DNA of 64,000 nucleotides from NCBI GenBank assembly GCA_030704615.1, contig CM060734.1, positions 48,050,001-48,114,000 of the forward strand, written 5' to 3'. A program made the position numbers and the translations under genes. The notes under the pieces are model-generated. The model ran no database searches and had not been told where the DNA came from. It saw nothing but the letters and a program-made list of their open reading frames with translations. The DNA comes from Takakia lepidozioides. Lineage: Eukaryota > Plantae > Bryophyta. Position 1 is the first letter of the stretch. Each line of letters starts with the position of its first letter. Below, piece by piece: positions 32,669-62,899 of this stretch.

Positions 32669-32705
<37 letters not shown>

Positions 32706-36156: not shown

Positions 36157-36537
36157 CAAGATAGGGGAGAATCTTGTCTGCTGTGAGAGGTCATGTCCAA
36201 TTAGATGCCCCAAAAGCTTACAAGACTCCCCTGGTCCCAGCCACCGAAGACCCGTATCAACACCCCAAGCGGGTAGCTGAGCCACATCTAAGTTATTGAG
36301 CTTAGAAATCATTCCAACCGACTTAGGCTAGTTAACTTTGAATCCCGAAGCTAAACAAAACCATTCCAAAGCGTTCAAAGCAGCCTCTATATTCAGATAA
36401 TTGTCATTCCGTAGGTAAAACACAGTATCATCAGCATACATGGAGAGGGTTAGATTAAAGGGTTTGGAGGAAATAAACGTGGGTATTTGAAGACCCAGAA
36501 TGTGTGGCTGCGCATCCATGAGGTGTCCCAGACAATG
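36157..36537 (-). mobile_element. LINE (L1-like) reverse transcriptase fragment, cut by element A
   Basis: HCLGHLMD..ILGLQIP..SMYADDTVFYL..LEWFCLASGFKVN*PKS..GESCKLLGHLIG, including the YADD motif. Homology stops exactly at the element A terminus. Confidence 0.85.
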
Positions 36538-37398
36538 GGGAATGCTTGCGCGTGAGCCTGGCCGCGTGAGCCTGTGAGCCTGTGAGCCTGTGAGCCTGGC
36601 TAGGCTCACGCCACGTCAGCAAGCTTCCACGTGTTCAGGCCGTAATTCCGTGCTTACCCCCCCTATTACCGCGGATCAGCTGTCGCCTATGTCCTAATTT
36701 TTTATCCCTCTTCAAGGCCCCCACATGAATATTCTTTGTGGCCGAGAACAATGGCAGGTTTGCGGATGAATTATGATTGAGGTCATGACTTTGGAATGAG
36801 GAGATCGTCCACTAGAGAACTGAATATTAAAAGCAAACATTTTTTTTGGGCAAAGCAGTACATTCATTCCAACACACAATCATTTTTCAATTCCGCAATC
36901 CGAAGACCTATTTTAGGCAATCCCCAACTGTACTTACGGGAACGCGCAAAGAACTTGAAAAACAGTTTGGAGATGGAAGCAAAACCAAAATTCAATTTAT
37001 TGAGCCTCGGTACTTGAACCTAAAGAAATATTGGAGGTTTCAGAGGAACCACTTCCAGAGTGAACAACAATATCATCTATGAATACAGCAGCACATCCAT
37101 GACGTTTTTTTTTCCTCGACCTTCATGGAGATGCGAGTACAGTGTTTGTTCGGATAATACCCTGCGCAAGCTTCCGCGTAAACCGGCAAGCGGTTGGATC
37201 TAGGGGGGCTCGGGGACATGTAGTATCCTTGGAAACCGAAAGGCGTCTGCTGATTCGATGACTGGTGCTGAACTCTGCAAAGCAAGAAGAGGAATGGTGG
37301 TATAAGTTACCATCCAGATATAGACAACGAAAGCCACTATTTCTCGAATGGGAACGACACAAGGAAATGCAACATATTTTGCACGAGTACACAAGAAC

Positions 37399-40300
37399 TT
37401 ACTCACACTCAAAATCGGAGTCCACGTCCAGATCCTCGTCAGGCGCTTCGTGCTCCTCCAGAAGTCCCTCTGTGGATGGGGCAGAAGTAGTGCCCGACTC
37501 AAGCTGACGAAGCTCGCTTGAGAAGAGCTCCGTATCAGCTTCCATGCCGAAGAAGTGCCTTCCGGCGCTCTTGCAAGCATGAAAACATGCTCCTGCAAAT
37601 CCAAGAAGAACGAGAAATAAAAACCCGGTTTCCCTAAGGTCACTGCCCATATGTCAAACACAATGTGAAGGGCCCCACCCGTGCCCATAGACAAGTCAAC
37701 CACTCGTCCACCATGACGGCTGCATGTCTCCACCAAAGTCTGCATGAAAGCTGGAGATTTCTCCCGTGCACCTCTCCAAGGGACACCATTCGTCCTTTTC
37801 ATAGTCCGACCCGAGTCGACGTAATTGAAGATAACATCATCCTCCACAGGCTCGCAGGTGGGGTCAATGTGAGCTGCAAGGTCCCCTCAACTGAAACTCA
37901 GCAACACCAGCAGGAAGAGTGTCCGTCCGCCTCACCAGGCACAAAGCTTCGAACACTCGTGTCTGTCATTAATCACGAAGACAGAATGAGACAGAAGACA
38001 TAACCCACCATTTTGATTTACCGGAAAACCACGAAACATCAATTGAAAGGAACCATCACTTTCTGCCCCGGGAACTCGCCCTTCGTAAGAGGCAAAGTAT
38101 TGATGCATGTCCAAGTTTTGATGACACGAAACCCGGAAGCTTTCATGTAGCTGAAAAGAGTTCTTCGAGCCGACATGTCCTTTGACTGCATGAGAAAAAG
38201 AGCCCCCGAATCCGAAAGGAACTTGTTGCTGAACGAGAAAGCCCACTGCCAGTAACGAGAATCCGATTTGTTCCAAGTTGGGGTCGAATTGGAAGGAAAC
38301 ACATCAGGGACAGGAAAACCGTCAGGAATGTCCAGCACCACAAGGTCAGTCGCGTATGCCTGTTGAACTCCATTCACCCATTCCGGACTTTTTGTGACCT
38401 ACAGCCAAAAACATGAGACATTGTAAGAAGCCCAATCCAAATCTAACAGGAGATCAATCCCCTGGACAAGCCACAACAAGCTGCCAAACACAATTATTCA
38501 TACAACAGTTTAGACATAAGTTTTCACCTGAGTGAGGAACGAAACAAGCATGTCCCACGATTTCGAGGGCACCCCTTTGAATGTGGACTTCCTCGACTCC
38601 ATCATTGAAAGAAAACTTTCATTCAGCACCTTACGATTGAACTGGCCCAAAACCCTGGAGGGATGTTCTCTCGCCTCAAAAACTTGCTCCCTGGACTTTG
38701 AAGTTCTCCTATCCCTCCTTGCGGGAGAAGGCTATCTTTCAGGAACCTCTGACGGTCCCTGTCCTTGCGGAGCTGCACTTTTCCCCTTCCCCTTCGGATC
38801 CCCGACAACCTTCCCCTTTCGTTTTGGAGTAGCAGTTTTCTCGGGCTCTTTTGCAGCCAGAGCCGAAATGATTATGTCCTGGATGTCTTTCTCAGCCAAT
38901 GGGGCAATCGCTGCGGCATTGTCGTTCAGGTTTCTCAAAACAACTTCATCGAATGGGGTGTCCTGTTTTGGCAGGTCGAGGTACCACCCACAGTCTCGGA
39001 AGTGCGCCCTGCTCTAGTCTTTGGCAATACCAGCCGTGTACATTGTCTTGTCATTGGAGGGGTCAGCCCATGAATAGATGAAGTCTGGGTCATCGCTAAG
39101 GTACTTTCCCGGTATGAGGATATGATACATATACCTGAATCACATACAAAAAACGCAGACAGTCATTCGATCAGAAAACGAAAGAGAACACACATCCGGA
39201 AAAAAATATTGAAATGCAGGAATGCAAAACTGAGAATTCTACTTTTGAAATCCCGAATTAACCTTGCGTTGACGCAATGTTCATTCTAGCAGAAATGGGG
39301 AACACCAAATGATAATGTTGTATTGATAGAGACAACGAATGGAAGCGCAATTCAACATTGCTTCAACGCAAGGTTGTTTTAGGGTTGAGAGGAAATGGAA
39401 AACACTGCATGAAAACTACCATCAGACTATGTACTGGTGCGGATATTCAACATTGCGTTGGCGCAATGTTGAAATCCTCTGTTGAAACACATGTCAATGG
39501 TATCTGATAATCATAAGTTTCCTACAATTGTATTGAAATAGGTAGATGGCTGCGGGAAATTTCCAGCAAACCATACCGCCAAACAACCTTGCGTCAACGC
39601 AAGTCTGTTTGTTGGTACACTTAAAGTTGAAAATAGCATTTCAAACCGACTCAAAACAGACTTATGTTCATCTTGGCAGCATTGGAACTGGATTTGAACT
39701 GCCCAAAACCACAGGAAAAGCTACATAGCCTGACACTTCATCAACCTTGCGTTGACGCAAGGCTGATTTTCCAGTCAGTTTATCCCTTTCACATTCAGAA
39801 AAACGGCATTATGGGATACCCAGGTATAGGTAAGTGAAACCAGGACAATGGGAATCAACCTTGCGTTAACGCAATGTTGCTCGACTGCACATGTAGAGCC
39901 CTCAGAGATATCGCAAAGCACTGCAAATTCGCAATTCTTTATGGAAAGAACAACACAAGATTGCAGAAACATGCCATTCAAGCACCAATTTTGATTCAAG
40001 GAGGTCACACCTGTACAACACTCGCTTCATTGCTTGCTCGCTGTTGTACTGGTTTTTGAATTCGTAAGACCTGGAGATTCCTTTCTCTTTCTCAAACTCC
40101 CTGAAGAAGCAGTTGTTCCAGACAGCGAGCTTCCATCTCCTGATATAGGCCTCCAGTGTGATCCGGGGGGCAAGCCATCTGGATTTTGTAGTCTGCCATC
40201 GACTCAGCAAGTGCAGCCACTGCACGTTTTTCTAACTGCAACAAGAAAGCTCGTAAGAATTTTCAAGAGGTTACGGAGCATCAACAATGTCTGAAAATGG

Positions 40301-41686
40301 TTTGGTTCAAACCTTACCTGGCTCCAGAATGTGGCTTTGTGTAGCCACTGGTCGAATGTGTGGTCGCTAACAACTCTTATTGCTTGTGTCTTCGGGTCCC
40401 TCTCTGGAGTTGGGAACATGTTCGTGTCTCTCACAAGAGGATCCGAATTCCATATCTCCAACCACCTGATTTCGGTTGCATTGTCCACCATTGAAATGGA
40501 AAGGCGATGTAGTTTCTCTTGAGTCATTTCTGGCTTGGAGCCATACTTATCATAGTGTGCTTTCACCTGTTCCAGAAATTCCGTGCCAAGACCTGGGTCT
40601 GCTATCCGGATCTGTTTGTCGAATGCACTCATGAGGTTCTTCCTTTGATTTTTCATCTCGAACTTCATAATGTCCTCAAGCCCAGTTGCAGACCGCTGCT
40701 CTTCTGTGTGGGAATCATAGTACTCTGCTTTCGCCTTCAATCCAGTTTCTGCTATTTCTTGCTGCATACATAACAGGTAAAAAGAATCAAATACTGCAAT
40801 TTCATCACAAAATTTGCAGTATTAACAGGCAAAAGGTGTCAAAAAGCTTACAGTGTACATGTACTCAAGAAAAGCCTCCCTTGTCAAGCTGTACCATGTG
40901 CTTGTCTTCTTCTCAGCACACCTCTTCATCTGCTGAGGACTGAGCACGTTCGTGAATGACTCCAGTGGCATCAGCCATACCTTCTGGATGCGGAATAGAG
41001 TGTGGCACAGATTGGTCGTCACATGAGATGTTTCATTGGACCTGGAAAAACCTTCAACTCATAAGATGATTTCAAATTGTCGAAACAAGTAACAGACACA
41101 AAGTTGGAAACTTACTTGTTTATGTCGTGCATGGCTGTCAAGAGCTGCGTGACACGTCCTTTGTGATCGAGAACCATGGAAACCACGCTCCAGTGCCATT
41201 CGATGTCGTCCGAGTGCAAGCTTGAAATGTAATCCATCCAGGCAAGCAGTCTGTGGTTCCCATCCCAGACAAAAAACATCTTTCCCATGAATGCTTTTGT
41301 GGAGGCCTTTTTGGACAGCTTGAACTCGAACTCCCTGTTTACATCCCGCCAGCATGCATCCCAACCTTGCTCAATGTCCTCTGTTACAAGACACTCCTCT
41401 CCTTTCGTGTTCATAGTGGATACGTAGAACACTGCTGATCCCTTGACATAGCCGTGAACAAAGTCGTTCTTCAACTTCGTTATATCGTTCCTCAAAGCCG
41501 GTCGAACAGCGGGCATGTGTTTCCGCCCGGAACCTCCATCGACAGAATCACCTTCGACGAGTTCACTTTTTGCCCACCAATTATCTCCTCGGCCTTGTCT
41601 TCATAGTTTCCCTCCAATGCATCTTCCTCACCTTCACCTTCTGACGCGGCCAAATCTTCCCCCTCGGATTTCCTTTTTCTTTTCCT
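37399..41686 (-). pseudogene. Multi-exon ParB-like + beta-class amino-DNA-methyltransferase fusion gene, element A copy (5' exon missing)
   Basis: ParB-like FFVWDGNHRLLAW (41112-41516). MTase DLVVLDIPDG..FLSDSGALFL..GF (38039-38377), EKSPAFMQTLVETCSRHGGRVVDLSMGTG and ACKSAGRHFFGMEAD. GT-AG introns match gene B positions. Lesions: TAG at 39014-39016 (Trp in B) and frameshifts near 41520 and 37885. Confidence 0.85.
39259..39880. repeat. Six dispersed 24-bp palindromes CAACCTTGCGT(TG/CA)ACGCAAGGTTG inside an intron of gene A
   Basis: Copies start at 39259, 39353, 39448, 39584, 39742 and 39856, with non-repetitive spacers. Confidence 0.9.
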
Positions 41687-41734
41687 CTGCACAGAATGAA
41701 TTATCTGTGAGTGACAGATTGAGCACCCATGGAT

Positions 41735-42247
41735 CAACATTGCTTTGACGCAAGGTTGATTGATGGGGATGTAGTTTAGACTGAAAAGCATACAGGAAAG
41801 ACTTTTCAAGCAAAAAAGTGCTTTGCGTTGACGCAGGGTTCTTTTGGGAGCTTCAACTAATCAACTTTCCCTACCTTACATTTCAGGATATGAGAGATCG
41901 GACGCCTCCATTGAACAAAAAACTCATCAAAACCAGCCTTGCGTCAACGCAATGTTGATTCATGTACGGCATCTGTTCGTTTCACTAGAAGTTCTATCAT
42001 ACACAATGGAGGTAGGCATCAACCTTGCGTTGACGCAAGGTTGATTGCGAGCTCTCGGATAGGTGTTGAACAAACACAAAAGCTACAGGAAAAGGAGATT
42101 GTTGTCTCTTCTTCTTCTTCGAACTTGATGATGCGTCGCAAGCATCCATGTCTGTCTAGCTTGATTGTAGAGCAGCATCTGCACTGTTTTGATGCCCAAT
42201 ATATACACTTGGGAGGTCGACTTCAACCTTGCGTTGACGCAAGGTTG
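41735..42247. repeat. Five more copies of the element A palindrome, 5' of the first visible exon
   Basis: Copies start at 41735, ~41818, 41934, 42020 and 42224. Confidence 0.9.
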
Positions 42248-42560
42248 ATGTCGACCTCAATTTTTAGCAAGAACCAGAAAGAATCAGAGAGAGAGAAAGA
42301 GAGTTCATAGCCACCTCTGGTTTCTTCTTTGCACTTGATGGGGGCTGCTATTTCATGAGCGGCATGAGCATGAGCGGAAAAAAAAAAAGCATGAGCAGAC
42401 CATTGTGAGTCCACGGAAATAGGGTTAGGAGGCACGGAAATAGGGTCATGTGAAGTTGGAATGTGGCACCAGTGGACTTGAAATGCAACATTTTATTGCA
42501 AATTTTGTGGCAAGCCACGTCTATACAAGTGTGTTCTAACTGTCATAGCCGGAATGGGCA

Positions 42561-43011
42561 CTACTCTCCTACACCCTCCGAGGAACTTGCCCCACCTTCT
42601 TCCTCATCCCCCTCATCCTCCGAGCTCTGTGATGCATCAGTTCCACTATGCCTCTCAAAAATCCCGTCATCTCCTTGGGGGACTGTCCACCTCACCTCCT
42701 GGGAATCTTCTGCGTCTTCTCCCCCACTTTCCTCAGTAGAATCCAACACAAATCTACGAGCCCGACGGGCTCTAATAGCTGTTGCCTCCTCCCTCATCTT
42801 CATTTTCTTGAGGCTTGCCTCGTCTAAAATCTGCTCTACACGACTACGTTCGGAACACCTCCTAATGGACACCGAAGCAAGCCGGGCAGCATAAGTAGGA
42901 AGGATGTACTCCCTTTCTGGACTAGGCATGAAATCCCCCCTGGCAAAAAAAGGCACGTTCCTCCTGCCCATGAACTCCGGTGTAGACGTCCCTCCGGCAG
43001 TACTTGGCATC
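42561..43011 (-). CDS. Acidic ORF or terminal exon downstream of the MTase exons (unknown function)
   Basis: VPFFARGDFMPSPEREYILPTYAARLA aligns with TPFGFQGYYMSPSPPRSNRLPVYA..KLA at the equivalent place in element A (~37140-37260). Also open in copy 2 (56345-56851). Confidence 0.55.
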
Positions 43012-43136
43012 CTACAGTAAGAACAAATCCACTTCAAGAATGTCAATACCAGCACAACCAGAAAGGGTTTTCAATGAAATAAGAGAGCGGAGGGAGGTGC
43101 CTCACAAAATCTGGAGGCAACTTACAATGCCACCAC

Positions 43137-46100
43137 TCACTCGTAAACCGGGGGCTCCTCGGCCTTGATCCCAACTTCCTCCCCCTGCTCCTTCTCGGAT
43201 TTTTCCTCATCCTCCGAGGATGCCTCTTCCTCTTTTGGCAGACGTTCAGCCGTAGCAAGTTCCGAGTTGTGGAGGGCAGTATCTGGCTCGAAGGCGAACA
43301 CATGCCTGTCGGACAACGTCCCTGCCCACATTGAAGCACCTGAGGAACAAAGCGGGCGGTTAATAGCTTGCGGCATGCAATTGCAATGGGGCCAGGGGAC
43401 AAACTGAGCACGTGAAGGCTTACCCGTGCCGCATGTGAGGTCCAGAATCCGCCCTTGGACATCCGAGCACGTCTCCATGAGGGTTTGGATGAAAGCAGGG
43501 CTCCGGGTCCGGCTGTACCGCCACGGTTTGCCTGTCTTTGTGTCCTTCGGCATACTAGAGTGGGGCACATAGTTGTAGAGGACATCGTAGGTTACAGGGT
43601 CCACAGCGGCATCAACAAGACGACCGTCGTTGCGGAATTTGAACGTAGACCCTCTCTTCACAAAGCAATATGCCTCAAACACCAATGTCTGCACATCCAA
43701 CAAAGAAGGGATCAATTCCAGGGTCTACTTAACATACACCACAATATGAAGTGAATGCAATAGATTGATAACTTACACTTTGGCCCTCTGTTTGCAACCC
43801 CTGCGTACTGATGCAGAACCATTTTCTGAGGAGGACCGGGGTGACACTTTTCGGTGTCCACCTTGCCACCGTATTCTCTGTGGTCTTCCCTCTCGTGGCA
43901 AGGACAACCACACATCCACCGTCATCCAGAAGCATCCCCGCCAGCCCAAACCCGGCTTTCCAGTAGTCCTCAGTAAACCTGTTCCAGGTGGGCACACCAT
44001 CCAGGCCCTCCAGCAGCTCCCCATCTGGAATGTCGAGGAGAATCATGTCGCAAGCTCTCTCCACCTCAACCCCCCCCCCCCCCGAGTGCTCTTGCAATTC
44101 GTGCTCATAGCCGTGAAGAATTCCATCATGGCTTCAAAACCAGGGGTGTCTTTAGGCTCTTGTACCGCCAGCCCTCTTCTTGGCTTTCCCCTTCTGCTCC
44201 GCCAGAGACTTGTTGTGTGCCACCTTCTTCGCCCTGGCAGCGAGAGCGTCAAGGAAGCTCTCATTGACGCATTGGATGATGGTTGGAGGTTCTAGCTTTG
44301 GCCTGTGCGTAAACGTCACCGCCGAATACCGGCGTGTAGGCTCGCCCTCAAATGCCAACTTCTTGGCAGAGCCAGTCCCACTCCGAACTGACTTGGGAAC
44401 CCGGACGACCGGTGACTGGGTAGGAGCAACAGCAGTCGCAGGACCTTGAACGAAATCGGCGTCGGAGTCACTCTCTTGGGTCCCCTCCTGCGCCTCCTCC
44501 GATGCCCCGATGGTTTTCTTCTTTTTGGGTGTTACTGCAGTCACCTGTTTCCTTGTCCTTTTCCTTTGACCTTTACTCTTCTCATGCAATTTCTCCTGAA
44601 TTCCTGCCCTCACAAGCTCTGCCGCTTTCCTGGAGTTCGCAAGCGCTTTTGCCTCTTTTGCACCCAACGGAGGCAGCGGAGCCCGGTTTCGTCGGAATTC
44701 AGCATCCAGCTTCAATTGAAACTCGGATGGGTCGAGCGAGCCGGGCGGAAGGTCCACATACCAAGGGCAATCACGCAAATGTTCCAGATGCCACTCCTTC
44801 ACAATATCGTCAGTGTACATGGAGTCAGCCCCAGGGTTCCTCCATGCCAGAAAGAATGGTGGCTCGAAAGACAGATGACCTTTCTCCAAAAGGGAGAACT
44901 TACAGTACCTGCATTCATGAAACACACAATGAGGTCCGAAAATGGCTAAGTCCCTGAACGGCAATAGGGCCTACAACTGGAATATGGCGCCGAATTTCCA
45001 CTTCAGGGCCACCCAGTCTAGGGACTTAGCCCGAAAATGGCTAAGTCCCTGAACGGCAATACGGCCTGGAACTGGAAAATGGCGCCGAATTTCCAGTTCA
45101 GGGCCACCCAGTCTAGGGACTTAGCCCGAAAATGGCTAAGTCCCTGAACGGCAATAGGGCCTAAAACTGGAAAATGGCGCCGAATTTCCACTTCAGGGCC
45201 AGCCAGTCTAGGGACTTAGCCCGAAAATGGCTAAGTCCCTGAACGGCAATAGGGCCTGGAACTGGAAAATGGCGCCGAATTTCCAGTTCAGGGCCAGCCA
45301 GTCTAGGGACTTAGCCCGAAAATGGCTAAGTCCCTGGACGGCAATAGGGCCTAGAACTGGAAAACGGCGCCGAATTTCCAGTTCCGGGCCAGCCACACTA
45401 GGGACTTAGGCCGAAAATGGCTAAGTCCCTGAATGGCAATAGGGCCTACAACTGGAAAATGGCGCCGAATTTCCACTTCAGGGCCAGCCAGTCTAGGGAC
45501 TTAGACCGAAAATGGCTAAGTCCCTGGACGGCAATAGGGCCTGGAACTGGAAAATGGCGCCGAATTTCCAGTTCCGGGCCAGCCAGTCTAGGGACTTAGC
45601 CATTTTCGGAGCCCTGACTGGAAATTCGGCGCCATTTTCCCTAACACCACTTGAGGCCTCTAACATCCTGAAATGCCAGGACTTGAAAGAAAGGCAGCGC
45701 GTATGTACATGTACAGAAGGCGCATTGCTGTTTTGTCCGCGTTCGGCTGGTCGGTGAACTCGTGGCTCCGGCGAGCATCTGCTATCTCCCGAAAGAATAG
45801 GTTGGTTTTGTAGAGCAGAAAGTACCTCGTCACATAGTCACGTAGGCTCTCTGCTGCAGGAGATATCTCCATCTTGAACTGATGTGCTTGTGTGTCCAGC
45901 TGCTCTTGCGCATTCGTCGTCACCTGTGGAGATTGTCCATCAGATCGCTTTCCTCAAAAAATACAATGAATCCACCCCCTACTAGAGTAGAAGCCCCAAA
46001 CGAAGCGTGGGGAAGTACCTGAAACCACCATGTCATGCAGTTCATCCACATGTCGAATGTGGGGTCAGAGAGTTTGTCCGGTTTGGGGAAGCTCCACATG

Positions 46101-48787
46101 TCCCTGGTACTTTGGGAACCATTCCAGATTTGGAGCCACCGGGTCTGTCCAACCACCCAGCATATTCGTAAGCGCCAAACACCACAAAAAGGAGTTGTTG
46201 CCACCACAATTTTGTTAAGAATGTATCACCTTTTCTGTTGCATCCACACAGGATGTGGCTAGACGATGGAGCTTCTCCAATGTCATCGTGGGCTTCAGAG
46301 CGCGAGAGTAGTGCTTCCCCACCTCCACCAGAAAGTCGGTACCAAGGGCGGGATCAGCTATGGCCATGTACTTTACCATCCGCGACTTGTACTTTATGCG
46401 GGCCCTCACCTCCGCAGCTTTGACATACGATTCGAGTTCCGGGAGGGTTGGATTCTTCTCCTCTGACTCCATGTAGAACCTCCGCGCATGTGCCAAATCC
46501 TGCTGTATTTTCGTCTGTCAAGAATGCGCACATAAGATTAGAGATCCTGCTCAACACAATTTCTTCTATTGGGGGAGGAGAGACAGATTAGCTCAACAAA
46601 ACTGTCAGGAGCTTTACCCGAAATATGTAGTCCACCATGGCATCGACGCTCAGCCTATACCAGGTTCTGTCTGCCTTTGCCTCCGACTTGCGCAGGAGGT
46701 CGGCACTGAGGGAATTGGCAAACTCTTGCACCCCCTGCTTCCCGACATCCTTCACTCGGAAGAGCATATGGGACAAGTTGGTGGCAATGAAGGCATTCTC
46801 AGTCACCCTGCAGTGCCACATTTCCATCAAACAATACTGAAATGGGAATTTTCATCATATATGAGGATTCGCAATGAAATGACTTCCAAATTCAAAGTCC
46901 AAAAGCGAGAGGGGTTGTAGCTTACGAGTTGATGTCGGCCATTGCAGCTTTGAGAAGACTGCGATCTTTGGGCCCCGCAACCTTCAGCACAACACAATCG
47001 ACGGCGAAATGCCAATCGAGATCGTTGGGGTGGGCTTGGGCAATGTGCTCCATCCATGCCAGGAGGCGATGATTGCCGTCCCACACGTAGAACATCTTAC
47101 CGGACATGTGCTGGAAAAGAGGATCACTAGCAATCGATCTCTCGAACTCCTCATTTCGCGTTTGCCAATGGGGACCCCATTTGTCCACCTCATCGGAAGT
47201 GTGGGCACGGGAAGCTCCGTGGTCGTTCTCAATGGAAACGTAAAACGCGGCAGACCCCATTCGATATCCATCCCGGAAAGAGAATTTCAGCTTGTCGATA
47301 TCGCCTGGGAGGGCAGGTCTCACCACCTGCAATGACACCAAGCGGCAAAGGGGAATTCGAAGCTTGGCCGGGTACACCATGCCCCCCAGCACCCTGCCAA
47401 TGTTGCTGTGGGTTGCCTCCAACATCTTGGCAGCGGCCAACTTCATATCCGCCTCAGACATGACGTCTGCTGCAGAGGGGTTTTCCGGCAGCCCACCAGG
47501 ACCGCCAAATCCAGCCTGTATGCTCCGGGTTTGGGGCCTGGGGATGTCCGGGAGGATGTCATCCTGGTCAGAAACCTCCATGTCGTCCTCCTCAACAGGG
47601 TCAGCCACCTGCGAAACCACCTCCAGTCACTCTACTCTACTGCCCTCTCCCTGGCTTCACCTCGAACTTGCACAATCCGTGCTCTTTCAGGTGTTCTTTC
47701 CTCTCCTCCACTCTCCACCGTATGGGTAATTGCGGGGGCTGCTCTTGCCCGCGATGGTCTAACCGGTGTGTTACTGCCTCTCTGTGGTGTCTTGGAGGGA
47801 TCCACCGTCTCTGTGTGTCCCTCGCTTACATTGGCATCTGTCATTTGGGCACCCCTGGCCTCTTCAGCTGCCTTTTGTCTTTCCTCCTGGCTAGCATTCT
47901 GTCTCGTCTGTTCTTTTGCCCTCTCTTTTGCCCTCTCACGGGCTTTCTGTTTCTTACTAGGGCTAGCAGCAGGGGAGCCCTCCAGGACGACCACCTTTGA
48001 TTGAGGCGAACTGACACCCTCGCGCGCACTGCTCACTCCCCCCTCCGCAGCCCGTGACTGCTCTCTCGCCGGGGATTGCATGTGCTTAGCTTTCTTCTTT
48101 TTTTTGCGTGGGCGGGCCCTACTGCATGTGCATGAACAACCTCCATTGCCGGATCTGTTGTCCTCATGTCCTCACGCCCTTCACCTGCCATGCCGCCTGC
48201 ACCAACCTCCCCAATGCATACTCTGTCGTAATCTCGTTGCAAGTCCTCCCGTCCACCAACAAAAGGTTTAAGTTTGCCCTCTTGCCCCAAGTTGGGCGAT
48301 TGAAACATGTGATGAGTTGGAGCTGTCGATGATACCACCAGCGTGCCGGGCTCGTCGTCACTCTGTCATTGACAAAAATCGTGAAAACCAACATCGGTGC
48401 AAAAAGCAGCATCGCAACCACCATAGCAACAATCATGTAGCAAAAATGAAAACATAACAAGTTTAGGAAGTATGGAGAGCCATGCAACAACAATGAAAAC
48501 AAATGCAACCATTGCCTAAGAATGACATGCACAAGCAGCCTTCTCCAGAGCTGCCGGATTTGCACACGCATTGCAAACAATCTAAGGTTCACTCAACTAT
48601 CTAAAGTTCACTCATACAGCAAAGCCAGGATGAAGATGCAAAAACAAAGCAAGGTAACAAAGCGAAAGCAAAAAATAAATCGAACAAACCGAAAGCAGAA
48701 GTGGCTTGCCTGAGAGTACTCGGCTTCAGTTGGCGCAGGTTGTGAGCAAGACACTGGAATCTCCTGCTGGAGCTTCAGTTTGGCCAT
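43137..48787 (-). CDS. ParB-like + beta-class amino-DNA-methyltransferase fusion gene, about 9 exons and 1,300 aa (element B copy 1; small indels)
   Basis: ATG at 48787 (MAKLKLQQE..), GC-AG first intron. ParB-like exon RPALPGDIDKLKFSFRDGY..YVWDGNHRLLAW, then helical middle exons. MTase DMILLDIPDG..LDDGGCVVVL, RSPAFIQTLMETCSDVQGRILDLTCGTG/ASMWAGTLSDRHVFAFEPD. Frameshifts fall at homopolymers and microrepeats. Confidence 0.85.
44935..45640. repeat. Intronic tandem array, 7 x 95 bp, each unit with two dyads; array bounded by 21-bp inverted repeats
   Basis: AATGGCTAAGTCCC recurs at 44941, 45036, 45131, 45226, 45321, 45416 and 45511. The dyads are AGGGACTTAGCC-n7-GGCTAAGTCCCT and GGAAAATGGCGCCGAATTTCC. 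Confidence 0.95.
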
Positions 48788-49099
48788 GCGAGAGATTGGC
48801 CGTCGTCCGTAGTACAGAGCTTTCAACTTCCGCCGCGGTCTGGATGTGAGGTCTCTCTCAGGAGAGCCACGCCCTTCAGGCGGCATAAGTCCCAGCCAAA
48901 AAGATCTCATTTTTGGGTACATGCCTGGAATACCATGTTAAGCCAAGATTAGCATGAGATTTAGGGTACGTGTCCAGAAAGCCATGCGTCGCCAGCCCGA
49001 ATAATAACCGACGGCGGTCAACATTTATTGCCCAACTGCGCAATTAAATGTCGGATGAAGCCCTCCATGTCGGATGAAAATCGACGTAAACAATCCCGG

Positions 49100-51250
49100 A
49101 ATTTCCAACGTAGAGGTAATTCGGAGCGCTGCACGATGAAATTCCGGCGCCGGATTTCCATCCTGCAGGTAATTCGGAGCGCAACAGGATGGATATCCGG
49201 CGCCGAATTTCCATCCGCGGAGGTAGGGCGGCGCTGGAAATTTCCCTCACGCAGGTAATTCGGAAGCGCGCGGATGGAAATCCGGCGACGAATTTCCATC
49301 CAGCCAGGTAGGGCGGCGCTGGAAATTTCCCTCACGCAGGTAATTCGGAAGCGCGCGGATGGAAATCCGGCGCCGAATTTCCATCCGCGGAGGTAGGGCG
49401 GCGCTGGAAATTTCCCTCACGCAGGTAATTCGGAAGCGCGCGGATGGAAATCCGGCGCCGAATTTCCATCCAGGTAATTCGAATCCCGGATGAATGGAAA
49501 TTCGGCGCCGAATTTCCATCCAGCAGGTAAGTCGGATCGGTGCCGTATGGATATTCGGCGCCGAATTTCCATTCGCCATGTATTTCTGAGCGAGGAATTA
49601 CCTTCGTGCAGGTAATTCTGGACGAGGAAACATTAACATCCTACCGGCATCGATTGGAATTACCTGCACGAAGGTAATTCTCATCTGGGAATTACCTGCA
49701 GGAAGGTAATTCTGAGCGATGAAATACATGGCGAATGGAAATTCGGCGCCGAATATCCATACGGCACCGATCCGACTTACCTGCTGGATGGAAATTCGGC
49801 GCCGAATTTCCATTCATCCGGGATTCCACTTACCTGCTGGATGGAATTTCGGCGCCGAATTTCCATTCATCCGGGATTCCACTTACCTGCTGGATGGAAT
49901 TTCGGCGCCGAATTTCCATTCATCCGGGATTCCACTTACCTGCAGGATGGAATTTCGGCGCCGAATTTCCATTCATCCGGGATTCCACTTACCTGCAGGA
50001 TGGAATTTCGGCGCCGAATTTCCATTCATCCGGGATTCCACTTACCTGCAGGATGGAATTTCGGCGCCGAATTTCCATTCATCCGGGATTCCACTTACCT
50101 GCAGGATGGAATTTCGGCGCCGAATTTCCATTCATCCGGGATTCCACTTACCTGCGTGAGGGAATTTCGGCGCCGAATTACCTCCGCGGATGGAAATTCG
50201 GCGCCGGATTTCCATCCGCGCGCTTCCGAATTACCTGCTGGATGGAAATTCGGCGCCGAATATCCATACGGCACCGATCCTACTTATCTGCTGGATGGAA
50301 ATTCGGCGCCGAATTTCCATTCATCCGGGATTCGAATTACCTGCAGGATGGAAATTCGGCGCCGAATATCCATACGCCACCGATCCGACTGACCTGCTGG
50401 ATGGAAATTCGGCGCCGAATTTCCATTCATCCGGGATTCCACTTACCTGTTGGATGGAAATTCGGCGCCGAATTTCCATTCATCCGGGATTCAAATTACC
50501 TGCAGGATGGAAATTCGGCGCCGAATTTCCATTTATCCGGGATTCCACTTACCTGCTGGATGGAAATTCGGCGCCGAATTTCCATCCGGGGGATGGTCTC
50601 TGTCGGAGAGGTGCCGCCTCTCCGCCGCTCTGTTGGATATTCAGGGCCGAATTTCCGTCCCGGGGGTTGAAATATGACGGCCAGGTGCCGACCTCTCCCT
50701 TCTCCCCGACTGCATTGGAACGGCCCCGAATTGAAATTCGGCGCCGTTTTCCCATCTGGGGAGGTTTTTATGTCGGCCAGTTTTCGGTCTGACCCCCCGA
50801 CAAGACTTCCTTTGGGGGGGGCCGGATGGAAATTCGGCGCCGAATCTCCATCCAGGGGATGTTCTCTGTCGCACACTCGCCGGCCTCTGCACCCGAGGCG
50901 ACTTCATCCGGGCGTCCCCTGTTCGATATTCGGTGCCGAATTTCCGTCCGGGGGTTGAAATGTGACGGCCAAGTGCCGGCCACTCCCCCCTCCTCGACTG
51001 CATCCGAACCGCCCCGGATGGAAATTCGGCGCCGTTTTTCCATCTGGGGATGTTTTTATGCCGTCCAGTTTTCGGCCTGACCCCCCGACACAACTCCCTT
51101 TGGGGGGCCCGGATTGAAATTCGGCGCCGAATCTCCATCCTGGGGATGTTCTCTGTCGCAGACGCGCCGGCCTCTGCGCCCGAGGCGACTTCATCCGGGC
51201 TTCCTCTGTTGGATATTGGGTGCCGAATTTCCATTCGGGGGTAGTAATGT
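49100..51250. repeat. Composite palindrome field (85-bp, 53-bp and ~287-bp tandem units built on GGAAATTCGGCGCCGAATTTCC) around a long inverted repeat
   Basis: 85-bp units at 49223/49308/49393, 7 x 53-bp units at 49778-50149, and ~105-bp inverted arms at ~49482-49587 and ~49721-49826. Confidence 0.95.
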
Positions 51251-51539
51251 GACGGCATTGTGCCGGCTTCTCCCCTTCAGCCGTCATCATCCGGATGGCC
51301 CCCCACTTTCTGACTGCATACCGTTGGCAGTTATTGCGCAAAGACGAGGGGCCGCATTCCGGAGACAAAGTTCATTAACACTCTGACTGTGGATTTTTTG
51401 AGATAGTTGGCTCCCTGGATTTTGGATCAGGCTTCGTCGCTCGGACAAATCGGCATCGCATTCATTCCCATCGCTGCACCCCCTTCTACCAGGGAGCTTC
51501 CCCGCACGCCATCCTGGCAGTCTTGTGTGCACATCTCCC

Positions 51540-51996
51540 ATGGCGGAAAACCCGAGCGCTACAGTGTACTGCCGAGCATAGAGCTTCATTTCCGTGCAGA
51601 GGGGACACCTGCCGGGTGATGGAGAAATATCTGTGCGTTCGATACCACCTGAAACCGGGGTCGGTTTTTTTGGAGGAGGAAAGGAAGGACTCAAACGGCC
51701 TTGTTGTCGAGAGTATTGTTGTGCTCCACGATGATTTCGGCGATGGCAGGGAATGGCGAGTTCCACCATCGGACAGCGTCATATACAGGGCTGTTGGGGA
51801 CTTCATTTGCCCGCCAAATGCACCGTCTATCCTGGCGCCTTCCACGAAACAATCCGCGAATCAGAGAGTGGGTACCTCAAAGAGAGAAGTCCGCAACGAA
51901 GTAAATCCAGAGCCGAACCCATCCATGAAGACGACCGAGAACCGGGTTGTTCACAACCTGTCCTGTATGCAACTGTCACTGTCCAAAGGGCACTAA
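51540..51996 (+). CDS. Unknown divergent ORF inside element B (possible first exon of a second gene, truncated)
   Basis: Non-repetitive, protein-like sequence (MEKYLCVRYHLKPGSVFLEEE..VVLHDDFGDGREWRVPP) on the far side of the palindrome field. No family recognised. Confidence 0.35.
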
Positions 51997-51999
51997 ACC

Positions 52000-52780: not shown

Positions 52781-52879
52781 AGACAAGGAGGCCTTACGCA
52801 GCTTCATCAGCAGTGCAATGCTGTTTGGTGAGTACATTCTTAGACTGTCACTTCCTTCAATTGATTCCTTAATTTCAGG

Positions 52880-53020
52880 TGGCTGGAGAAGTTTATGAGT
52901 TTGGATCAGGGTTTAAATGTACTGAAAGACAGTGTTGATATCAAGGACGAGAGCTTCATGGCAAATTGCAAGGCTATGGAGCAGCTCCTGGTTGACCTTA
53001 GTAGGTAGCAAGTTGAGAAG
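52880..53020 (+). pseudogene. Methylcrotonyl-CoA carboxylase beta subunit (MCCB)-like exon fragment
   Basis: An ag..gt-bounded exon reading LNVLKDSVDIKDESFMANCKAMEQLLVDLSR*QVEK resembles the plant MCCB N-terminus (..LPDGVDRNSEAFSSNSIAMEGILSELRSHIKKV) from memory. Confidence 0.5.
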
Positions 53021-53059
53021 GTACCTCCTCTGTTGTGAGAGAGAGGACAGAGCACATGC

Positions 53060-55492: not shown

Positions 55493-56109
55493 ATGGACAC
55501 TGAGGTGTGGAGTAGGCTGTCGTGCGACTTACTGGACAGAGTATTGGCACGCTTATCTTGCACAAACTTTTGCCGCTTATAGATGGTGTGCAAGCGCCAG
55601 CGATCTCTACCAACAACTCAAGGTTTTATGCATCTCCGCCACCAAGTCGGTGTCGATCAAATAGAGCCATTCTTTGTCTTTCCCTCGGACAATGGGTACA
55701 TTTCCCCGCAGAACATGGGATTTTTAAAGTTATTGTATCCATCATCATCTGCAAGGGGATGTCCAAGTTGCAACAGATGGACCTCGCATTCCTTAGATCT
55801 CACTTGCCTAGTTGCGTCTCAACAAATATGTCAACAGCAGGTTCCTATCCTTCACCGGCTTACTATTATTTATCTATAGACGGAGGGTTGTTTTCCATGG
55901 CACTGAGTTCATGTCGCTTAGAGGATTCGCACATCATTGTGTTCAATCCAATCTCAAAGTGTTGCAGACGCTTGCTTGAAGTGCCTCCACTTTACGGCGA
56001 GGAGAGATTTCTTAGTAAACTGGTGATGGATAGCAGAACTGGAGGGTACACCCTTATTAGGGTTACAATTGTAACAAGGTATGATACTGAAGAGGTAGAG
56101 GTTCGCATG
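55493..56109 (+). pseudogene. F-box protein pseudogene interrupted by element B copy 2
   Basis: MDTEVWSRLSCDLLDRVLARLSCTNFCRL*MVCKR..RSL (F-box), later DGGLF..IIVFNPISKCCRRL. The frame runs directly into the element terminus. Confidence 0.8.
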
Positions 56110-56932
56110 GGGGCTGCTATTTCATGAGCGGCATGAGCATGAGCGGCATGAGCATGAGCGGAAAAAAAAAAAGCATGAGCAGACCATTGTGAGTCCACGG
56201 AAATAGGGTTAGGAGGCACGGAAATAGGGTCATGTGAAGTTGGAATGTGGCACCAGTGGACTTGAAATGCAACATTTTATTGCAAATTTTGTGGCAAGCC
56301 ACGTCTATACAAGTGTGTTCTAACTGTCATAGCCGGAATGGGCACTACTCTCCTACACCCTCCGAGGAACTTGCCCCACCTTCTTCCTCATCCCCCTCAT
56401 CCCCCTCATCCTCCGAGCTCTGTGATGCATCAGTTCCACTATGCCTCTCAAAAATCCCGTCCTCTCCTTGGGGGACTGTCCACCTCACCTCCTGGGAATC
56501 TTCTGCGTCTTCTCCCCCACTTTCCTCCTCAGCAGAATCCAACACAAATCTACGAGCCCGACGGGCTCTAATAGCTGCTGCCTCCTCCCTCATCTTCATT
56601 TTCTTGAGGCTTGCCTCGTCTAAAATCTGCTCTACACGACTACGTTCGGAACACCTCCTAATGGACACCGAAGCAAGTCGGGCAGCATAAGTAGGAAGGA
56701 TGTACTCCCTTTCTGGACTAGGCATGAAATCCCCCCTGGCAAAAAAAGGCACGTTCCTCCTGCCCATGAACTCCGGTGTAGACGTCCCTCCGGCAGTACT
56801 TGGCATCCTACAGTAAGAACAAATCCACTTCAAGAATGTCAATACCAGCACAACCAGAAAGGGTTTTCAATGAAATAAGAGAGCGGAGGGAGGTGCCTCA
56901 CAAAATCTGGAGGCAACTTACAATGCCACCAC

Positions 56933-59900
56933 TCACTCGTAAACCGGGGGCTCCTCGGCCTTGATCCCAACTTCCTCCCCCTGCTCCTTCTCGGATTTTT
57001 CCTCATCCTCCGAGGATGCCTCTTTCCTCATCCTCCCGTTTCCGAGTTGTGGAGGGCAGTATCTGGCTCGAAGGCGAACACATGCCTGTCGGACAACGTC
57101 CCTGCCCACATTGAAGCACCTGAGGAACAAAGCGGGCGGTTAATAGCTTGCGGCATGCAATTGCAATGGGGCCAGGGGACAAACTGAGCACGTGAAGGCT
57201 TACCCGTGCCGCATGTGAGGTCCAGAATCCGCCCTTGGACATCCGAGCACGTCTCCATGAGGGTTTGGATGAAAGCAGGGCTCCGGGTCCGGCTGTACCG
57301 CCACGGTTTGCCTGTCTTTGTGTCCTTCGGCATACTAGAGTGGGGCACATAGTTGTAGAGGACATCGTAGGTTACAGGGTCCACAGCGGCATCAACAAGA
57401 CGACCGTCGTTGCGGAATTTGAACGTAGACCCTCTCTTCACAAAGCAATATGCCTCAAACACCAATGTCTGCACATCCAACAAAGAAGGGATCAATTCCA
57501 GGGTCTACTTAACATACACCACAATATGAAGTGAATGCAATAGATTGATAACTTACACTTTGGCCCTCTGTTTGCAACCCCTGCGTACTGATGCAGAACC
57601 ATTTTCTGAGGAGGACCGGGGTGACACTTTTCGGTGTCCACCTTGCCACCGCATTCTCTGTGGTCTTCCCTCTCGTGGCAAGGACAACCACACATCCACC
57701 GTCATCCAGAAGCATCCCCGCCGCCAGCCCAAACCCGGCTTTCCAGTAGTCCTCAGTAAACCTGTTCCAGGTGGGCACACCATCCAGGCCCTCCAGCAGC
57801 TCCCCATCTGGAATGTCGAGAGAATCATGTCGCAAGCTCTCTCCACCTCAACCCCCCCCCCCCCCCCGAGTGCTCTTGCAATTCGTGCTCATAGCCGTGA
57901 AGAATTCCATCATGGCTTCAAAACCAGGGGTGTCTTTAGGCTCTTGTACCGCCCCCTCTTCTTGGCTTTCCCCTTCTGCTCCGCCAGAGACTTGTTGTGT
58001 GCCACCTTCTTCGCCCTGGCAGCGAGAGCGTCAAGGAAGCTCTCATTGACGCATTGGATGATGGTTGGAGGTTCTAGCTTTGGCCTGTGCGTAAACGTCA
58101 CCGCCGAATACCGGCGTGTAGGCTCGCCCTCAAATGCCAACTTCTTGGCAGAGCCAGTCCCACTCCGAACTGACTTGGGAACCCGGACGACCGGTGACTG
58201 GGTAGGAGCAACAGCAGTCGCAGGACCTTGAACGAAATCGGCGTCGGAGTCACTCTCTTGGGTCCCCTCCTGCGCCTCCTCCGATGCCCCGATGGTTTTC
58301 TTCTTTTTGGGTGTTACTGCAGTCACCTGTTTCCTTGTCCTTTTCCTTTGACCTTTACTCTTCTCATGCAATTTCTCCTGAATTCCTGCCCTCACAAGCT
58401 CTGCCGCTTTCCTGGAGTTCGCAAGCGCTTTTGCCTCTTTTGCACCACAACGGAGGCAGCGGAGCCCGGTTTCGTCGGAATTCAGCATCCAGCTTCAATT
58501 GAAACTCGGATGGGTCGAGCGAGCCGGGCGGAAGGTCCACATACCAAGGGCAATCACGCAAATGTTCCAGATGCCACTCCTTCACAATATCGTCAGTGTA
58601 CATGGAGTCAGCCCCAGGGTTCCTCCATGCCAGAAAGAATGGTGGCTCGAAAGACAGATGACCTTTCTTCTCCAAAAGGGAGAACTTACAGTACCTGCAT
58701 TCATGAAACACACAATGAGGTCCGAAAATGGCTAAGTCCCTGAACGGCAATAGGGCCTACAACTGGAATATGGCGCCGAATTTCCACTTCAGGGCCACCC
58801 AGTCTAGGGACTTAGCCCGAAAATGGCTAAGTCCCTGAACGGCAATACGGCCTGGAACTGGAAAATGGCGCCGAATTTCCAGTTCAGGGCCACCCAGTCT
58901 AGGGACTTAGCCCGAAAATGGCTAAGTCCCTGAACGGCAATAGGGCCTAAAACTGGAAAATGGGCGCCGAATTTCCACTTCAGGGCCAGCCAGTCTAGGG
59001 ACTTAGCCCGAAAATGGCTAAGTCCCTGAACGGCAATAGGGCCTGGAACTGGAAAATGGCGCCGAATTTCCAGTTCAGGGCCAGCCAGTCTAGGGACTTA
59101 GCCCGAAAATGGCTAAGTCCCTGGACGGCAATAGGGCCTAGAACTGGAAAACGGCGCCGAATTTCCAGTTCCGGGCCAGCCACACTAGGGACTTAGGCCG
59201 AAAATGGCTAAGTCCCTGAATGGCAATAGGGCCTACAACTGGAAAATGGCGCCGAATTTCCACTTCAGGGCCAGCCAGTCTAGGGACTTAGACCGAAAAT
59301 GGCTAAGTCCCTGGACGGCAATAGGGCCTGGAACTGGAAAATGGCGCCGAATTTCCAGTTCCGGGCCAGCCAGTCTAGGGACTTAGCCATTTTCGGAGCC
59401 CTGACTGGAAATTCGGCGCCATTTTCCCTAACACACCACTTGAGGCCTCTAACATCCTGAAATGCCAGGACTTGAAAGAAAGGCAGCGCGTATGTACATG
59501 TACAGAAGGCGCATTGCTGCTTTGTCCGCGTTCGGCTGGTCGGTGAACTCGTGGCTCCGGCGAGCATCTGCTATCTCCCGAAAGAATAGGTTGGTTTTGT
59601 AGAGCAGAAAGTACCTCGTCGTCACATAGTCACGTAGGCTCTCTGCTGCAGGAGATATCTCCATCTTGAACTGATGTGCTTGTGTGTCCAGCTGCTCTTG
59701 CGCATTCGTCGTCACCTGTGGAGATTGTCCATCAGATCGCTTTCCTCAAAAAATACAATGAATCCACCCCCTACTAGAGTAGAAGCCCCAAACGAAGCGT
59801 GGGGAAGTACCTGAAACCACCATGTCATGCAGTTCATCCACATGTCGAATGTGGGGTCAGAGAGTTTGTCCGTTTGGGGAGCTCCACATGTCCCTGGTAC

Positions 59901-62583
59901 TTTGGGAACCATTCCAGATTTGGAGCCACCGGGTCTGTCCAACCACCCAGCATATTCGTAAGCGCCAAACACCACAAAAAGGAGTTGTTGCCACCACAAT
60001 TTTGTTAAGAATGTATCACCTTTTCTGTTGCATCCACACAGGATGTGGCTAGACGATGGAGCTTCTCCAATGTCATCGTGGGCTTCAGAGCGCGAGAGTA
60101 GTGCTTCCCCACCTCCACCAGAAAGTCGGTACCAAGGGCGGGATCAGCTATGGCCATGTACTTTACCATCCGCGACTTGTACTTTATGCGGGCCCTCACC
60201 TCCGCAGCTTTGACATACGATTCGAGTTCCGGGAGGGTTGGATTCTTCTCCTCTGACTCCATGTAGAACCTCCGCGCATGTGCCAAATCCTGCTGTATTT
60301 TCGTCTGTCAAGAATGCGCACATAAGATTAGAGATCCTGCTCAACACAATTTCTTCTATTGGGGGAGGAGAGACAGATTAGCTCAACAAAACTGTCAGGA
60401 GCTTTACCCGAAATATGTAGTCCACCATGGCATCGACGCTCAGCCTATACCAGGTTCTGTCTGCCTTTGCCTCCGACTTGCGCAGGAGGTCGGCACTGAG
60501 GGAATTGGCAAACTCTTGCACCCCCTGCTTCCCGACATCCTTCACTCGGAAGAGCATATGGGACAAGTTGGTGGCAATGAAGGCATTCTCAGTCACCCTG
60601 CAGTGCCACATTTCCATCAAACAATACTGAAATGGGAATTTTCATCATATATGAGGATTCGCAATGAAATGACTTCCAAATTCAAAGTCCAAAAGCGAGA
60701 GGGGTTGTAGCTTACGAGTTGATGTCGGCCATTGCAGCTTTGAGAAGACTGCGATCTTTGGGCCCCGCAACCTTCAGCACAACACAATCGACGGCGAAAT
60801 GCCAATCGAGATCGTTGGGGTGGGCTTGGGCAATGTGCTCCATCCATGCCAGGAGGCGATGATTGCCGTCCCACACGTAGAACATCTTACCGGACATGTG
60901 CTGGAAAAGAGGATCACTAGCAATCGATCTCTCGAACTCCTCATTTCGCGTTTGCCAATGGGGACCCCATTTGTCCACCTCATCGGAAGTGTGGGCACGG
61001 GAAGCTCCGTGGTCGTTCTCAATGGAAACGTAAAACGCGGCAGACCCCATTCGATATCCATCCCGGAAAGAGAATTTCAGCTTGTCGATATCGCCTGGGA
61101 GGGCAGGTCTCACCACCTGCAATGACACCAAGCGGCAAAGGGGAATTCGAAGCTTGGCCGGGTACACCATGCCCCCCAGCACCCTGCCAATGTTGCTGTG
61201 GGTTGCCTCCAACATCTTGGCAGCGGCCAACTTCATATCCGCCTCAGACATGACGTCTGCTGCAGAGGGGTTTTCCGGCAGCCCACCAGGACCGCCAAAT
61301 CCAGCCTGTATGCTCCGGGTTTGGGGCCTGGGGATGTCCGGGAGGATGTCATCCTGGTCAGAAACCTCCATGTCGTCCTCCTCAACAGGGTCAGCCACCT
61401 GCGAAACCACCTCCAGCACTCTCGTCGTCTCTACTGCCCTCTCCCCTGGCTTCACCTCGAACTTGCACAATCCGTGCTCTTTCAGGTGTTCTTTCCTCTC
61501 CTCCACTCTCCACCGTATGGGTAATTGCGGGGGCTGCTCTTGCCCGCGATGGTCTAACCGGTGTGTTACTGCCTCTCTGTGGTGTCTTGGAGGGATCCAC
61601 CGTCTCTGTGTGTCCCTCGCTTACATTGGCATCTGTCATTTGGGCACCCCTGGCCTCTTCAGCTGCCTTTTGTCTTTCCTCCTGGCTAGCATTCTGTCTC
61701 GTCTGTTCTTTTGCCCTCTCTTTTGCCCTCTCACGGGCTTTCTGTTTCTTACTAGGGCTAGCAGCAGGGGAGCCCTCCAGGACGACCACCTTTGATTGAG
61801 GCGAACTGACACCCTCGCGCGCACTGCTCACTCCCCCCTCCGCAGCCCGTGACTGCTCTCTCGCCGGGGATTGCATGTGCTTAGCTTTCTTCTTTTTCTT
61901 TGCGTGGGCGGGCCCTACTGCATGTGCATGAACAACCTCCATTGCCGGATCTGTTGTCCTCATGTCCTCACGCCCTTCACCTGCCATGCCGCCTGCACCA
62001 ACCTCCCCAATGCATACTCTGTCGTAATCTCGTTGCAAGTCCTCCCGTCCACCAACAAAAGGTTTAAGTTTGCCCTCTTGCCCCAAGTTGGGCGATTGAA
62101 ACATGTGATGAGTTGGAGCTGTCGATGATACCACCAGCGTGCCGGGCTCGTCGTCACTCTGTCATTGACAAAAATCGTGAAAACCAACATCGGTGCAAAA
62201 AGCAGCATCGCAACCACCATAGCAACAATCATGTAGCAAAAATGAAAACATAACAAGTTTAGGAAGTATGGAGAGCCATGCAACAACAATGAAAACAAAT
62301 GCAACCATTGCCTAAGAATGACATGCACAAGCAGCCTTCTCCAGAGCTGCCGGATTTGCACACGCATTGCAAACAATCTAAGGTTCACTCAACTATCTAA
62401 AGTTCACTCATACAGCAAAGCCAGGATGAAGATGCAAAAACAAAGCAAGGTAACAAAGCGAAAGCAAAAAATAAATCGAACAAACCGAAAGCAGAAGTGG
62501 CTTGCCTGAGAGTACTCGGCTTCAGTTGGCGCAGGTTGTGAGCAAGACACTGGAATCTCCTGCTGGAGCTTCAGTTTGGCCAT
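56933..62583 (-). CDS. ParB-like + beta-class amino-DNA-methyltransferase fusion gene (element B copy 2; small indels)
   Basis: Same exons as copy 1: ATG at 62583, YVWDGNHRLLAW in 60712-61506, LDIPDG in 57509-57835 and ILDLTCGTG in 57028-57495. Confidence 0.85.
58721..59428. repeat. Intronic 7 x 95-bp tandem array (copy 2)
   Basis: Same units as 44935-45640. Confidence 0.95.
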
Positions 62584-62899
62584 GCGAGAGATTGGCCGTC
62601 GTCCGTAGTACAGAGCTTTCAACTTCCGCCGCGGTCTGGATGTGAGGTCTCTCTCAGGAGAGCCACGCCCTTCAGGCGGCATAAGTCCCAGCCAAAAAGA
62701 TCTCATTTTTTGGGGTACATGCCTGGAATACCATGTTAAGCCAAGATTAGCATGAGATTTAGGGTACGTGTCCAGAAAGCCATGCGTCGCCAGCCCGAAT
62801 AATAACCGACGGCGGTCAACATTTATTGCCCAACTGCGCAATTAAATGTCGGATGAAGCCCTCCATGTCGGATGAAAATCGACGTAAACAATCCCGGAA

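Follow-up and report, generated by a model that had tools for sequence, protein, structure and literature searches.

Two repeated-element subfamilies in Takakia lepidozioides carry a ParB-like, methylase-like gene and clustered palindromes with a shared CG core

A 64,000-nucleotide stretch of the genome of Takakia lepidozioides (Bryophyta; GCA_030704615.1, contig CM060734.1, positions 48,050,001 to 48,114,000 of the forward strand; hereafter the window, whose own coordinates are used throughout) holds copies of A and B, two subfamilies of a repeated element that is likely a DNA transposon. Each carries an accessory gene that joins a predicted ParB/Srx fold to a helical middle region and a methylase-like domain of the beta class, and each has two clusters of palindromes at that gene. 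Both families have sharp left ends, recognized as steps in contig depth and as loose ends at 36537 and 42340. At 36537 the depth passes from 190-807 to 19,673-34,044 in run X2 and from 0-2 to 19-66 in run X6, and it rises again at 42340 (387,480-636,556 in X2; 195-477 in X6); summed contig depth is not copy number, and the steps alone were used. Element A (36537..42339, no strand assigned) starts with GGGGAATGC within a long interspersed nuclear element (LINE) reverse-transcriptase fragment, a LINE-like YADD frame being present in the flank, and its right part is lost where B begins. B copy 1 (42340..51963, no strand) starts with GGGGGCTGC; its depth stays high to ~51960, at which point a divergent open frame breaks off and a pentatricopeptide repeat (PPR) gene fragment starts, and its right side is likely truncated near 51963 against that fragment. 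B copy 2 (56109..64000, no strand) has the same left end, is 97% identical to copy 1 over 7.9 kb and runs off the window; the two copies differ mostly by indels of 1-3 bases, in which the assembly is rich, and at several breaks in A public contigs have other letters. All three copies are incomplete, and neither A nor B yielded a right end, terminal repeats or a target duplication by which to assign a superfamily.

The accessory genes lie on the minus strand. In A the ParB-like exon (WDGNHRLLAW; 41115..41689, 5' limit approximate, one frameshift) is followed by three helical-region exons, the last being the FFRE..YEF exon (40011..41045, inner limits approximate), by an intron (39135..40010), and by the DCGWYLDLP exon, a linker and the methylase-like exons with DLVVLDIPD and VVDLSMGTG (37440..39134, 3' limit approximate). 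The B gene has the same order: an open frame holding the ParB-like exon (WDGNHRLLAW; 46925..47626, further 5' exons being possible up to ~48900), helical-region exons ending with the FFRE..HEF exon (45709..46810), an intron (44909..45708), and the DCPWYVDLP exon, linker and methylase-like exons with DMILLDIPD and ILDLTCGTG (43140..44908). A tblastn search with the Ceratodon protein P0005 (1147 aa) matched exons in order along both genes, and between the A and B proteins identity is 45% over the ParB-like part and 39% over the part that follows. The introns of the two genes are homologous, with equal codon position and phase (LY-R-YMYH in A, LY-M-YCKF in B; LIYRYWKH in Ceratodon). A further B open frame at 42561-43070 (-), 3' of the methylase exons and with a plausible acceptor near 43014, has no Pfam match; it is possibly either the final exon or a small additional gene.

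The palindromes of A occur, as a first-pass annotation made from the letters had counted, in 11 copies: 8 are found at up to 2 mismatches, 10 at up to 3 and 11 at up to 6, where chance gives 0.00 (100 shuffles). Six lie in the intron at 39259-39879 (starting at 39259, 39353, 39448, 39584, 39742 and 39856), and five just 5' of the ParB-like exon at 41735..42247 (41735, 41818, 41934, 42020 and 42224; no strand). The B motif matches 41 times in the window at up to 2 mismatches (chance 0.00). When up to 5 mismatches are allowed, copy 1 contains 39 sites: 8 in the intron (44978-45641, in a 95-bp tandem array) and 31 at 49138-51232 in an upstream array of 53-, 85- and 287-bp tandem units (49099..51275, no strand); copy 2 has 8 + 15 up to the window end, with its intron array at 58722-59428 and its upstream array from 62897. 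The intron copies of B are imperfect, with one arm shortened and 4-5 mismatches. The annotation's dozens of perfect B palindromes are not confirmed, only 7 being perfect in copy 1 and 2 in copy 2. Its two locations for the clusters, one in the homologous intron and one on the 5' side of the ParB-like exon, agree with the coordinates, intron position and phase found here, and within the window no palindrome lies outside the elements. Of the outcomes that would speak against the annotation's reading none appeared, as far as the window and the related loci allow. A second short palindrome family, GAATTACCT..AGGTAATTC with a 32-bp period, is interleaved with the B upstream array (49563-49730; 63446-63656).

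The same annotation took the A and B motifs to be unrelated, and this does not stand. Read from the centre, the A half-site is R-A-C-G-C-A-A-G-G-T-T-G and that of B G-C-C-G-A-A-T-T-T-C-C; both fit R-N-C-G-N-A and a common CG-N-CG-N-CG core, in which the middle CG of A is replaced by TG, CA or TA in 11/11 sites. Among the A half-sites G4, C5 and A6 are kept in 22/22 and C3 in 20/22, with no transition in the flanking CG. The A sites are dispersed, and their flanks are no more alike than random starts (identity 0.30 among the 11 copies versus 0.29); core conservation amid unrelated flanks is the pattern expected of selected binding sites rather than of duplication. In B the intron and upstream units have the motif alone in common (flank identity 0.31). 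An origin of the A palindromes as miniature inverted-repeat transposable elements was ruled out by the unrelated flanks.

The gene belongs to a large family. A profile search gave 1108 clusters at E<=0.001 (clustered at 50% identity), the named relatives being from Ceratodon, Riccia and Adiantum; searches with patterns so narrow that the negative is weak gave 100 matches in viral contigs and 42 in prokaryote genomes, with 0 confirmed relatives in either. The best 80 of 234 relatives in metagenome contigs were reduced to 48 non-redundant loci, in which most copies are decayed, and these were scanned for palindromes without bias, the core being scored with CG decay allowed. The core was present in 47/89 palindromes up to 2 kb upstream of the gene (0.57 per kb), in 12/30 in the gene, taken as 4 kb downstream (0.085 per kb), and in 1/51 elsewhere (0.003 per kb), and seven control cores of equal degeneracy gave 1-8 upstream matches as against 47. 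The CG-N-CG-N-CG core is family-wide and concentrated at the gene, and the expectation that other subfamilies have arrays is borne out by 19/38 loci with at least 1.5 kb of upstream sequence. The exact 12-bp B centre occurs 4 times in L002, with no exact match in 79/80 loci, and A-type centres are present in L012, L016, L049, L050 and L064. In L005, L030 and L063 the inner cluster comes after the C.WY exon, not before it, so that the annotated rule of the same two places is valid for A and B only and fails for the inner cluster family-wide; the 5' cluster alone is fixed. The sister pair L027 (4900-5450) and L056 (9300-9530) has its own upstream palindrome of the GAAGAAC-N4-GTTCTTC type, possibly a specificity switch.

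The outer arms follow protein clades. In a FastTree tree of 60 rows (50 loci and 10 proteins), comparison of the 24 loci with sites, leaving out the remaining 26 without a site, gave a correlation of arm with protein distance of rho 0.71 (permutation p 0.0002). The co-variation that had been anticipated for motif and protein phylogenies is therefore present, and is also what physical linkage alone would predict. More telling are the 5/5 loci having both clusters, in which upstream and inner sites have like arms within unrelated flanks (0.32-0.35): the sites of one element change together.

The sites co-occur with one protein fold. A model of the first conserved exon of B (pLDDT 77) aligned at Z>=2 with 12 of 48,161 chains, KorB being best (Z 7.1, rmsd 2.6, 89 aligned) and PadC (Z 6.7) and sulfiredoxin (Z 5.8) next, and Foldseek placed Noc, Srx and ParB in its top rows (E 0.05-0.9), Noc and Srx leading at ~0.05. 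From their titles we take 12/12 of the aligned chains to be ParB/Srx-fold proteins. The scores are middling, yet the modelled fold is one and the same, which suggests that the N-terminal exon is a ParB/Srx domain as first annotated. In agreement with this the Box II GxxR motif is intact, with G, N and R invariant in 11/11 and G-N-H-R at least 90% conserved across 60 sequences. A Pfam scan of both ParB-like exons found no ParB family, and the assignment therefore rests on structure. The middle region of a Ceratodon relative gave an all-helical model (pLDDT 71) for which structure searches returned a best Foldseek E of 0.79 and a best Z of 4.7, none reaching 5, a result that does not show a DNA-binding fold to be absent. 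Homodimer prediction for P0005 residues 205-625 (score 0.00, alignment not used, fold uncertain) is evidence neither way. The nearest Atlas clusters of P0005 residues 225-460 are fungal DUF3723 (0.96; cargo of Starship elements) and an unnamed cluster with sponge members; the match is a lead only, according to which DUF3723 may be a ParB-like self-recognition protein, and HMMER found no PF12520 (DUF3723) in the exons or full-length relatives.

Together these features make it probable, by analogy with characterized systems, that the accessory protein, as a symmetric dimer, recognizes the palindromes of the subfamily that encodes it, is loaded there by way of its ParB fold and so helps the element to stay active in the face of host silencing. 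The dimer would read both the core and the outer arms, the arms giving specificity for self versus non-self. As in ParB and KorB, the fold may use a nucleotide (CTP or ATP) to load at the palindrome clusters and to act over the surrounding kilobases; as in VANC, the likely outcome would be shelter from silencing by host cytosine methylation, together with control of element promoters. Judged from sequence, the system would work like VANC/VANDAL with a ParB-type reader.

The effector step depends on the methylase-like domain. The Ceratodon relatives P0005 and P0011 exceed the Pfam cut-off for PF01555 (30.4 and 35 bits versus 26.7), the sole family found in Pfam scans of exons and full-length relatives; single A and B exons gave no PF01555 hit, yet they align to P0005 and P0011, and in A, B and P0005 the catalytic motif precedes the S-adenosylmethionine (SAM)-binding motif, which is the beta-class order. 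The canonical catalytic motif of N4C/N6A methylases is (D/N/S)PP(Y/F/W). A and B read DIPD, so that the first Pro and the aromatic residue are missing, and their SAM-binding motif is also degenerate; relatives read DIPE, DIPW, DLPT, DVPF, DTPF or DQPY. Because of DIPD the domain in A and B is more likely a DNA- or SAM-binding effector than a canonical enzyme. An active methylase, for which the palindromes would be both loading and substrate sites and which would write N4-methylcytosine or N6-methyladenine on its own element, would be compatible with the dimer reading and differ in the effector step only. Such activity is suggested by the relatives that pass the PF01555 cut-off with DTPF or DQPY, and by retention of the first Asp and the second Pro, which are present in A, B, L003 and L032 as well as in the relatives from Riccia and Adiantum; in view of the altered A and B motifs we regard it as a serious candidate but an unlikely one.

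The palindromes might instead be read by another element protein, a transposase or TnpA-like regulator, to which the ParB-methylase gene is a mere neighbour. Transposases are able to act as sequence-specific activators, according to the available part of bioRxiv 2026.08.24.746577. In B a divergent open frame (51382..51963, +) directly follows the upstream array; it is cut at 51963, where one contig continues in frame with other letters, and it likely begins a second gene of the element, which may be the transposase. A homologue search with this frame found none, and no transposase was found in the 64-kb window. Among the 48 related loci, 8 have a divergent upstream gene and 8 a convergent downstream gene. 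By eye the former resembles a GCM/Mutator-type transposase, a label given by its motifs, and Pfam and PDB searches of it yielded no family name. Six of the 8 loci with such a transposase-like remnant have core sites, which lie by or inside the accessory gene or between gene and remnant. GCM is not mentioned in the available part of PMC6446971. Against a reader of this kind, the sites occupy introns of the ParB-like gene and, in relatives, a stretch reaching no more than 2 kb from the ParB-like exon, not the left end, and palindrome arrays beside ParB-like genes recur in the red algal Plavaka elements, a different transposase superfamily, as far as their available description goes; this alternative is accordingly quite unlikely. 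The convergent gene, 4-10 kb downstream of the ParB-like exon, has the motif VTPN.LE.MIEY..W (L005, L027, L035, L040, L045, L056, L063 and L079).

It is improbable that selection on the palindromes reflects a host factor that reads CG-rich palindromes, or RNA or DNA hairpins. The core is common to distant hosts and has three CG steps, and long perfect arms can fold back; but the arms vary by clade, and even between A and B in one genome, a variation for which a single host reader would have no need, and at arm position 8 of A the mismatches recur (G 14, T 7, A 1 of 22) with pairing not restored. A neutral origin of the palindromes, through tandem duplication and local inversion, is very improbable and already largely refuted: although the B sites lie in tandem arrays and non-core palindromes are likewise commoner upstream in the related loci (0.51 vs 0.17 per kb), the A sites are dispersed in unrelated flanks, one motif occupies different repeat units, and distant relatives retain both the core and its location.

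Several points weigh against dimer binding with loading through the ParB fold. The binding is itself a prediction; the binder could be some other protein of the element that these copies no longer encode; the structural agreement is middling (Z<8; Foldseek best E 0.047); and the catalytic motif of A and of B is non-canonical. The definition of the core was settled once the related loci had been viewed, though it is readable from A and B alone, and since these loci are kin their Fisher p values are inflated, for which reason the contrast in density was relied on and not p. The other 19/38 loci with at least 1.5 kb upstream have no core palindrome at threshold, and L027 and L056 carry a different palindrome in its place. 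The arm-protein co-variation is expected from linkage, and the match of motif to clade is loose at deep nodes; e.g. the B inner arm (GCCGAA) is nearer to that of the distant L002 and a large clade than to that of the clade which groups weakly with A and B.

Comparison with known systems is made here by the parts of the published descriptions that were available. The design as such, i.e. self-recognition by an element-borne protein, is not new, being in print for red and brown algal transposons (bioRxiv 2025.02.11.637652; PMC12477816). The Ectocarpus element Sola1-1_Ec32 has an accessory gene of 1104 aa, on the strand opposite to the transposase, with ParB-like and N4C/N6A methylase domains, whose product is proposed to bind and modify its own element (PMC12477816). 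It resembles A and B as a transposon accessory protein of ~1100 aa that pairs these domains, and differs, compared by description, in its brown algal host, its Sola-1 carrier and the naming of no binding motif in the available text; A and B are distinct in being from a land plant, in having subfamily-specific palindromes with a shared core, and in their altered catalytic motif. PAG3 of the Bostrychia Plavaka elements (bioRxiv 10.1101/2025.02.11.637652) is a ParB-like protein proposed to bind its own element, and its gene adjoins tandem arrays of inverted repeats likened there to parS and VANDAL. In contrast to A and B, PAG3 is fused to a 2-oxoglutarate (2OG) oxygenase, with the methylase encoded apart from it by PAG2, and the available text describes no motif-protein co-variation; family-specific escape from silencing is given there as proven for VANDAL alone.

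For VANC of the Arabidopsis VANDAL elements, motif-protein co-evolution, binding and demethylation are proven (PMC5735166). As in A and B, the protein is encoded by the element, the motifs are subfamily-specific and lie in introns and upstream, and motifs are gained through tandem repeats, whereas the VANC motifs are 8-9 bp and non-palindromic and the A and B sites are palindromes of 22-30 bp. Pfam scans of exons and full-length relatives found no VANC family, no direct comparison being made. The bacterial ParB/parS and KorB systems share the ParB/Srx fold with GxxR and clustered palindromes near the gene; KorB serves as a clamp for long-range gene control (PMC11790492), and the nucleotide preference of ParB-type proteins is not predictable from sequence (PMC12704722, available part). 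A and B differ from bacterial ParB in the site length of 22-30 bp and the extra methylase-like domain; a helix-turn-helix was not identified, and no ParA family was found among 21 Pfam-scanned frames, the three element copies being incomplete. DUF3723 (PF12520), to which the N-terminal region of the Ceratodon relative comes closest in features and which is likewise mobile-element cargo, is a conserved component of fungal Starships whose function is unknown in the available accounts (bioRxiv 2021.12.13.472469; 2025.02.28.640899); Starships differ in moving by a tyrosine recombinase.

The family is not described in the available literature on Marchantia DN4MT1 or on the eukaryotic methylase clades of PMC4738411, and a literature search gave no land-plant description of it nor of a shared core with variable arms. 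The addition made here, a CG core held in common and arms specific to each clade, provides a ready test of cognate binding: two proteins and two defined sites in one genome, with a table of clades and arms of relatives, make binding, spreading and catalysis testable, at a time when self-protection by the algal ParB-fused accessory genes is still a proposal. A clamp whose site is short and modular could find further use in controlling the epigenome locally. A wider picture, which we hold tentatively and consider doubtful, is that the transposons of seed-free land plants carry a very large family of sliding clamps of the ParB type, which load on a two-part palindrome code, a universal CG-N-CG-N-CG core plus subfamily arms; these would spread over the element that encodes them and protect it from silencing, by writing a bacterial mark or through a repurposed methylase fold, and Starship DUF3723 would be the same device. 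If true, eukaryotic chromatin would have a self-recognition system that is nucleotide-switched and reprogrammable.

Other features of the elements and the window are minor. The left ends (36534-36537, 42337-42340, 56106-56109) are all preceded by AT, start with GGGG and continue in short tandem units, GTGAGCCT in A and CATGAGCGG in B; they may point to a preference in targets and to binding repeats at the termini. That the AT is a 2-bp target duplication was considered and set aside as unproven: CC-AT at 51999, which looks like a right end, is part of the PPR fragment, and the loose ends stop at the first G. The ratio of observed to expected CpG is 0.69 in A, 0.65 in B minus its arrays, 0.47 in the flank and 0.32 in the PPR gene, and was left unused as evidence because the youth of the copies accounts for the values equally well. 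Parts of A and B are covered by two sequencing runs of presumed RNA, which give no information on expression. A short high-depth repeat lies between the B copies at 54790-55000. The remaining content is ordinary host and repeat sequence, i.e. an intact PPR-E-DYW gene at 14568-17501 (-), an NmrA-like gene at 20141-21145 (-), an NIF-phosphatase-like frame at 2970-3917 (-) and a broken PPR copy at 51996-53411 (+).

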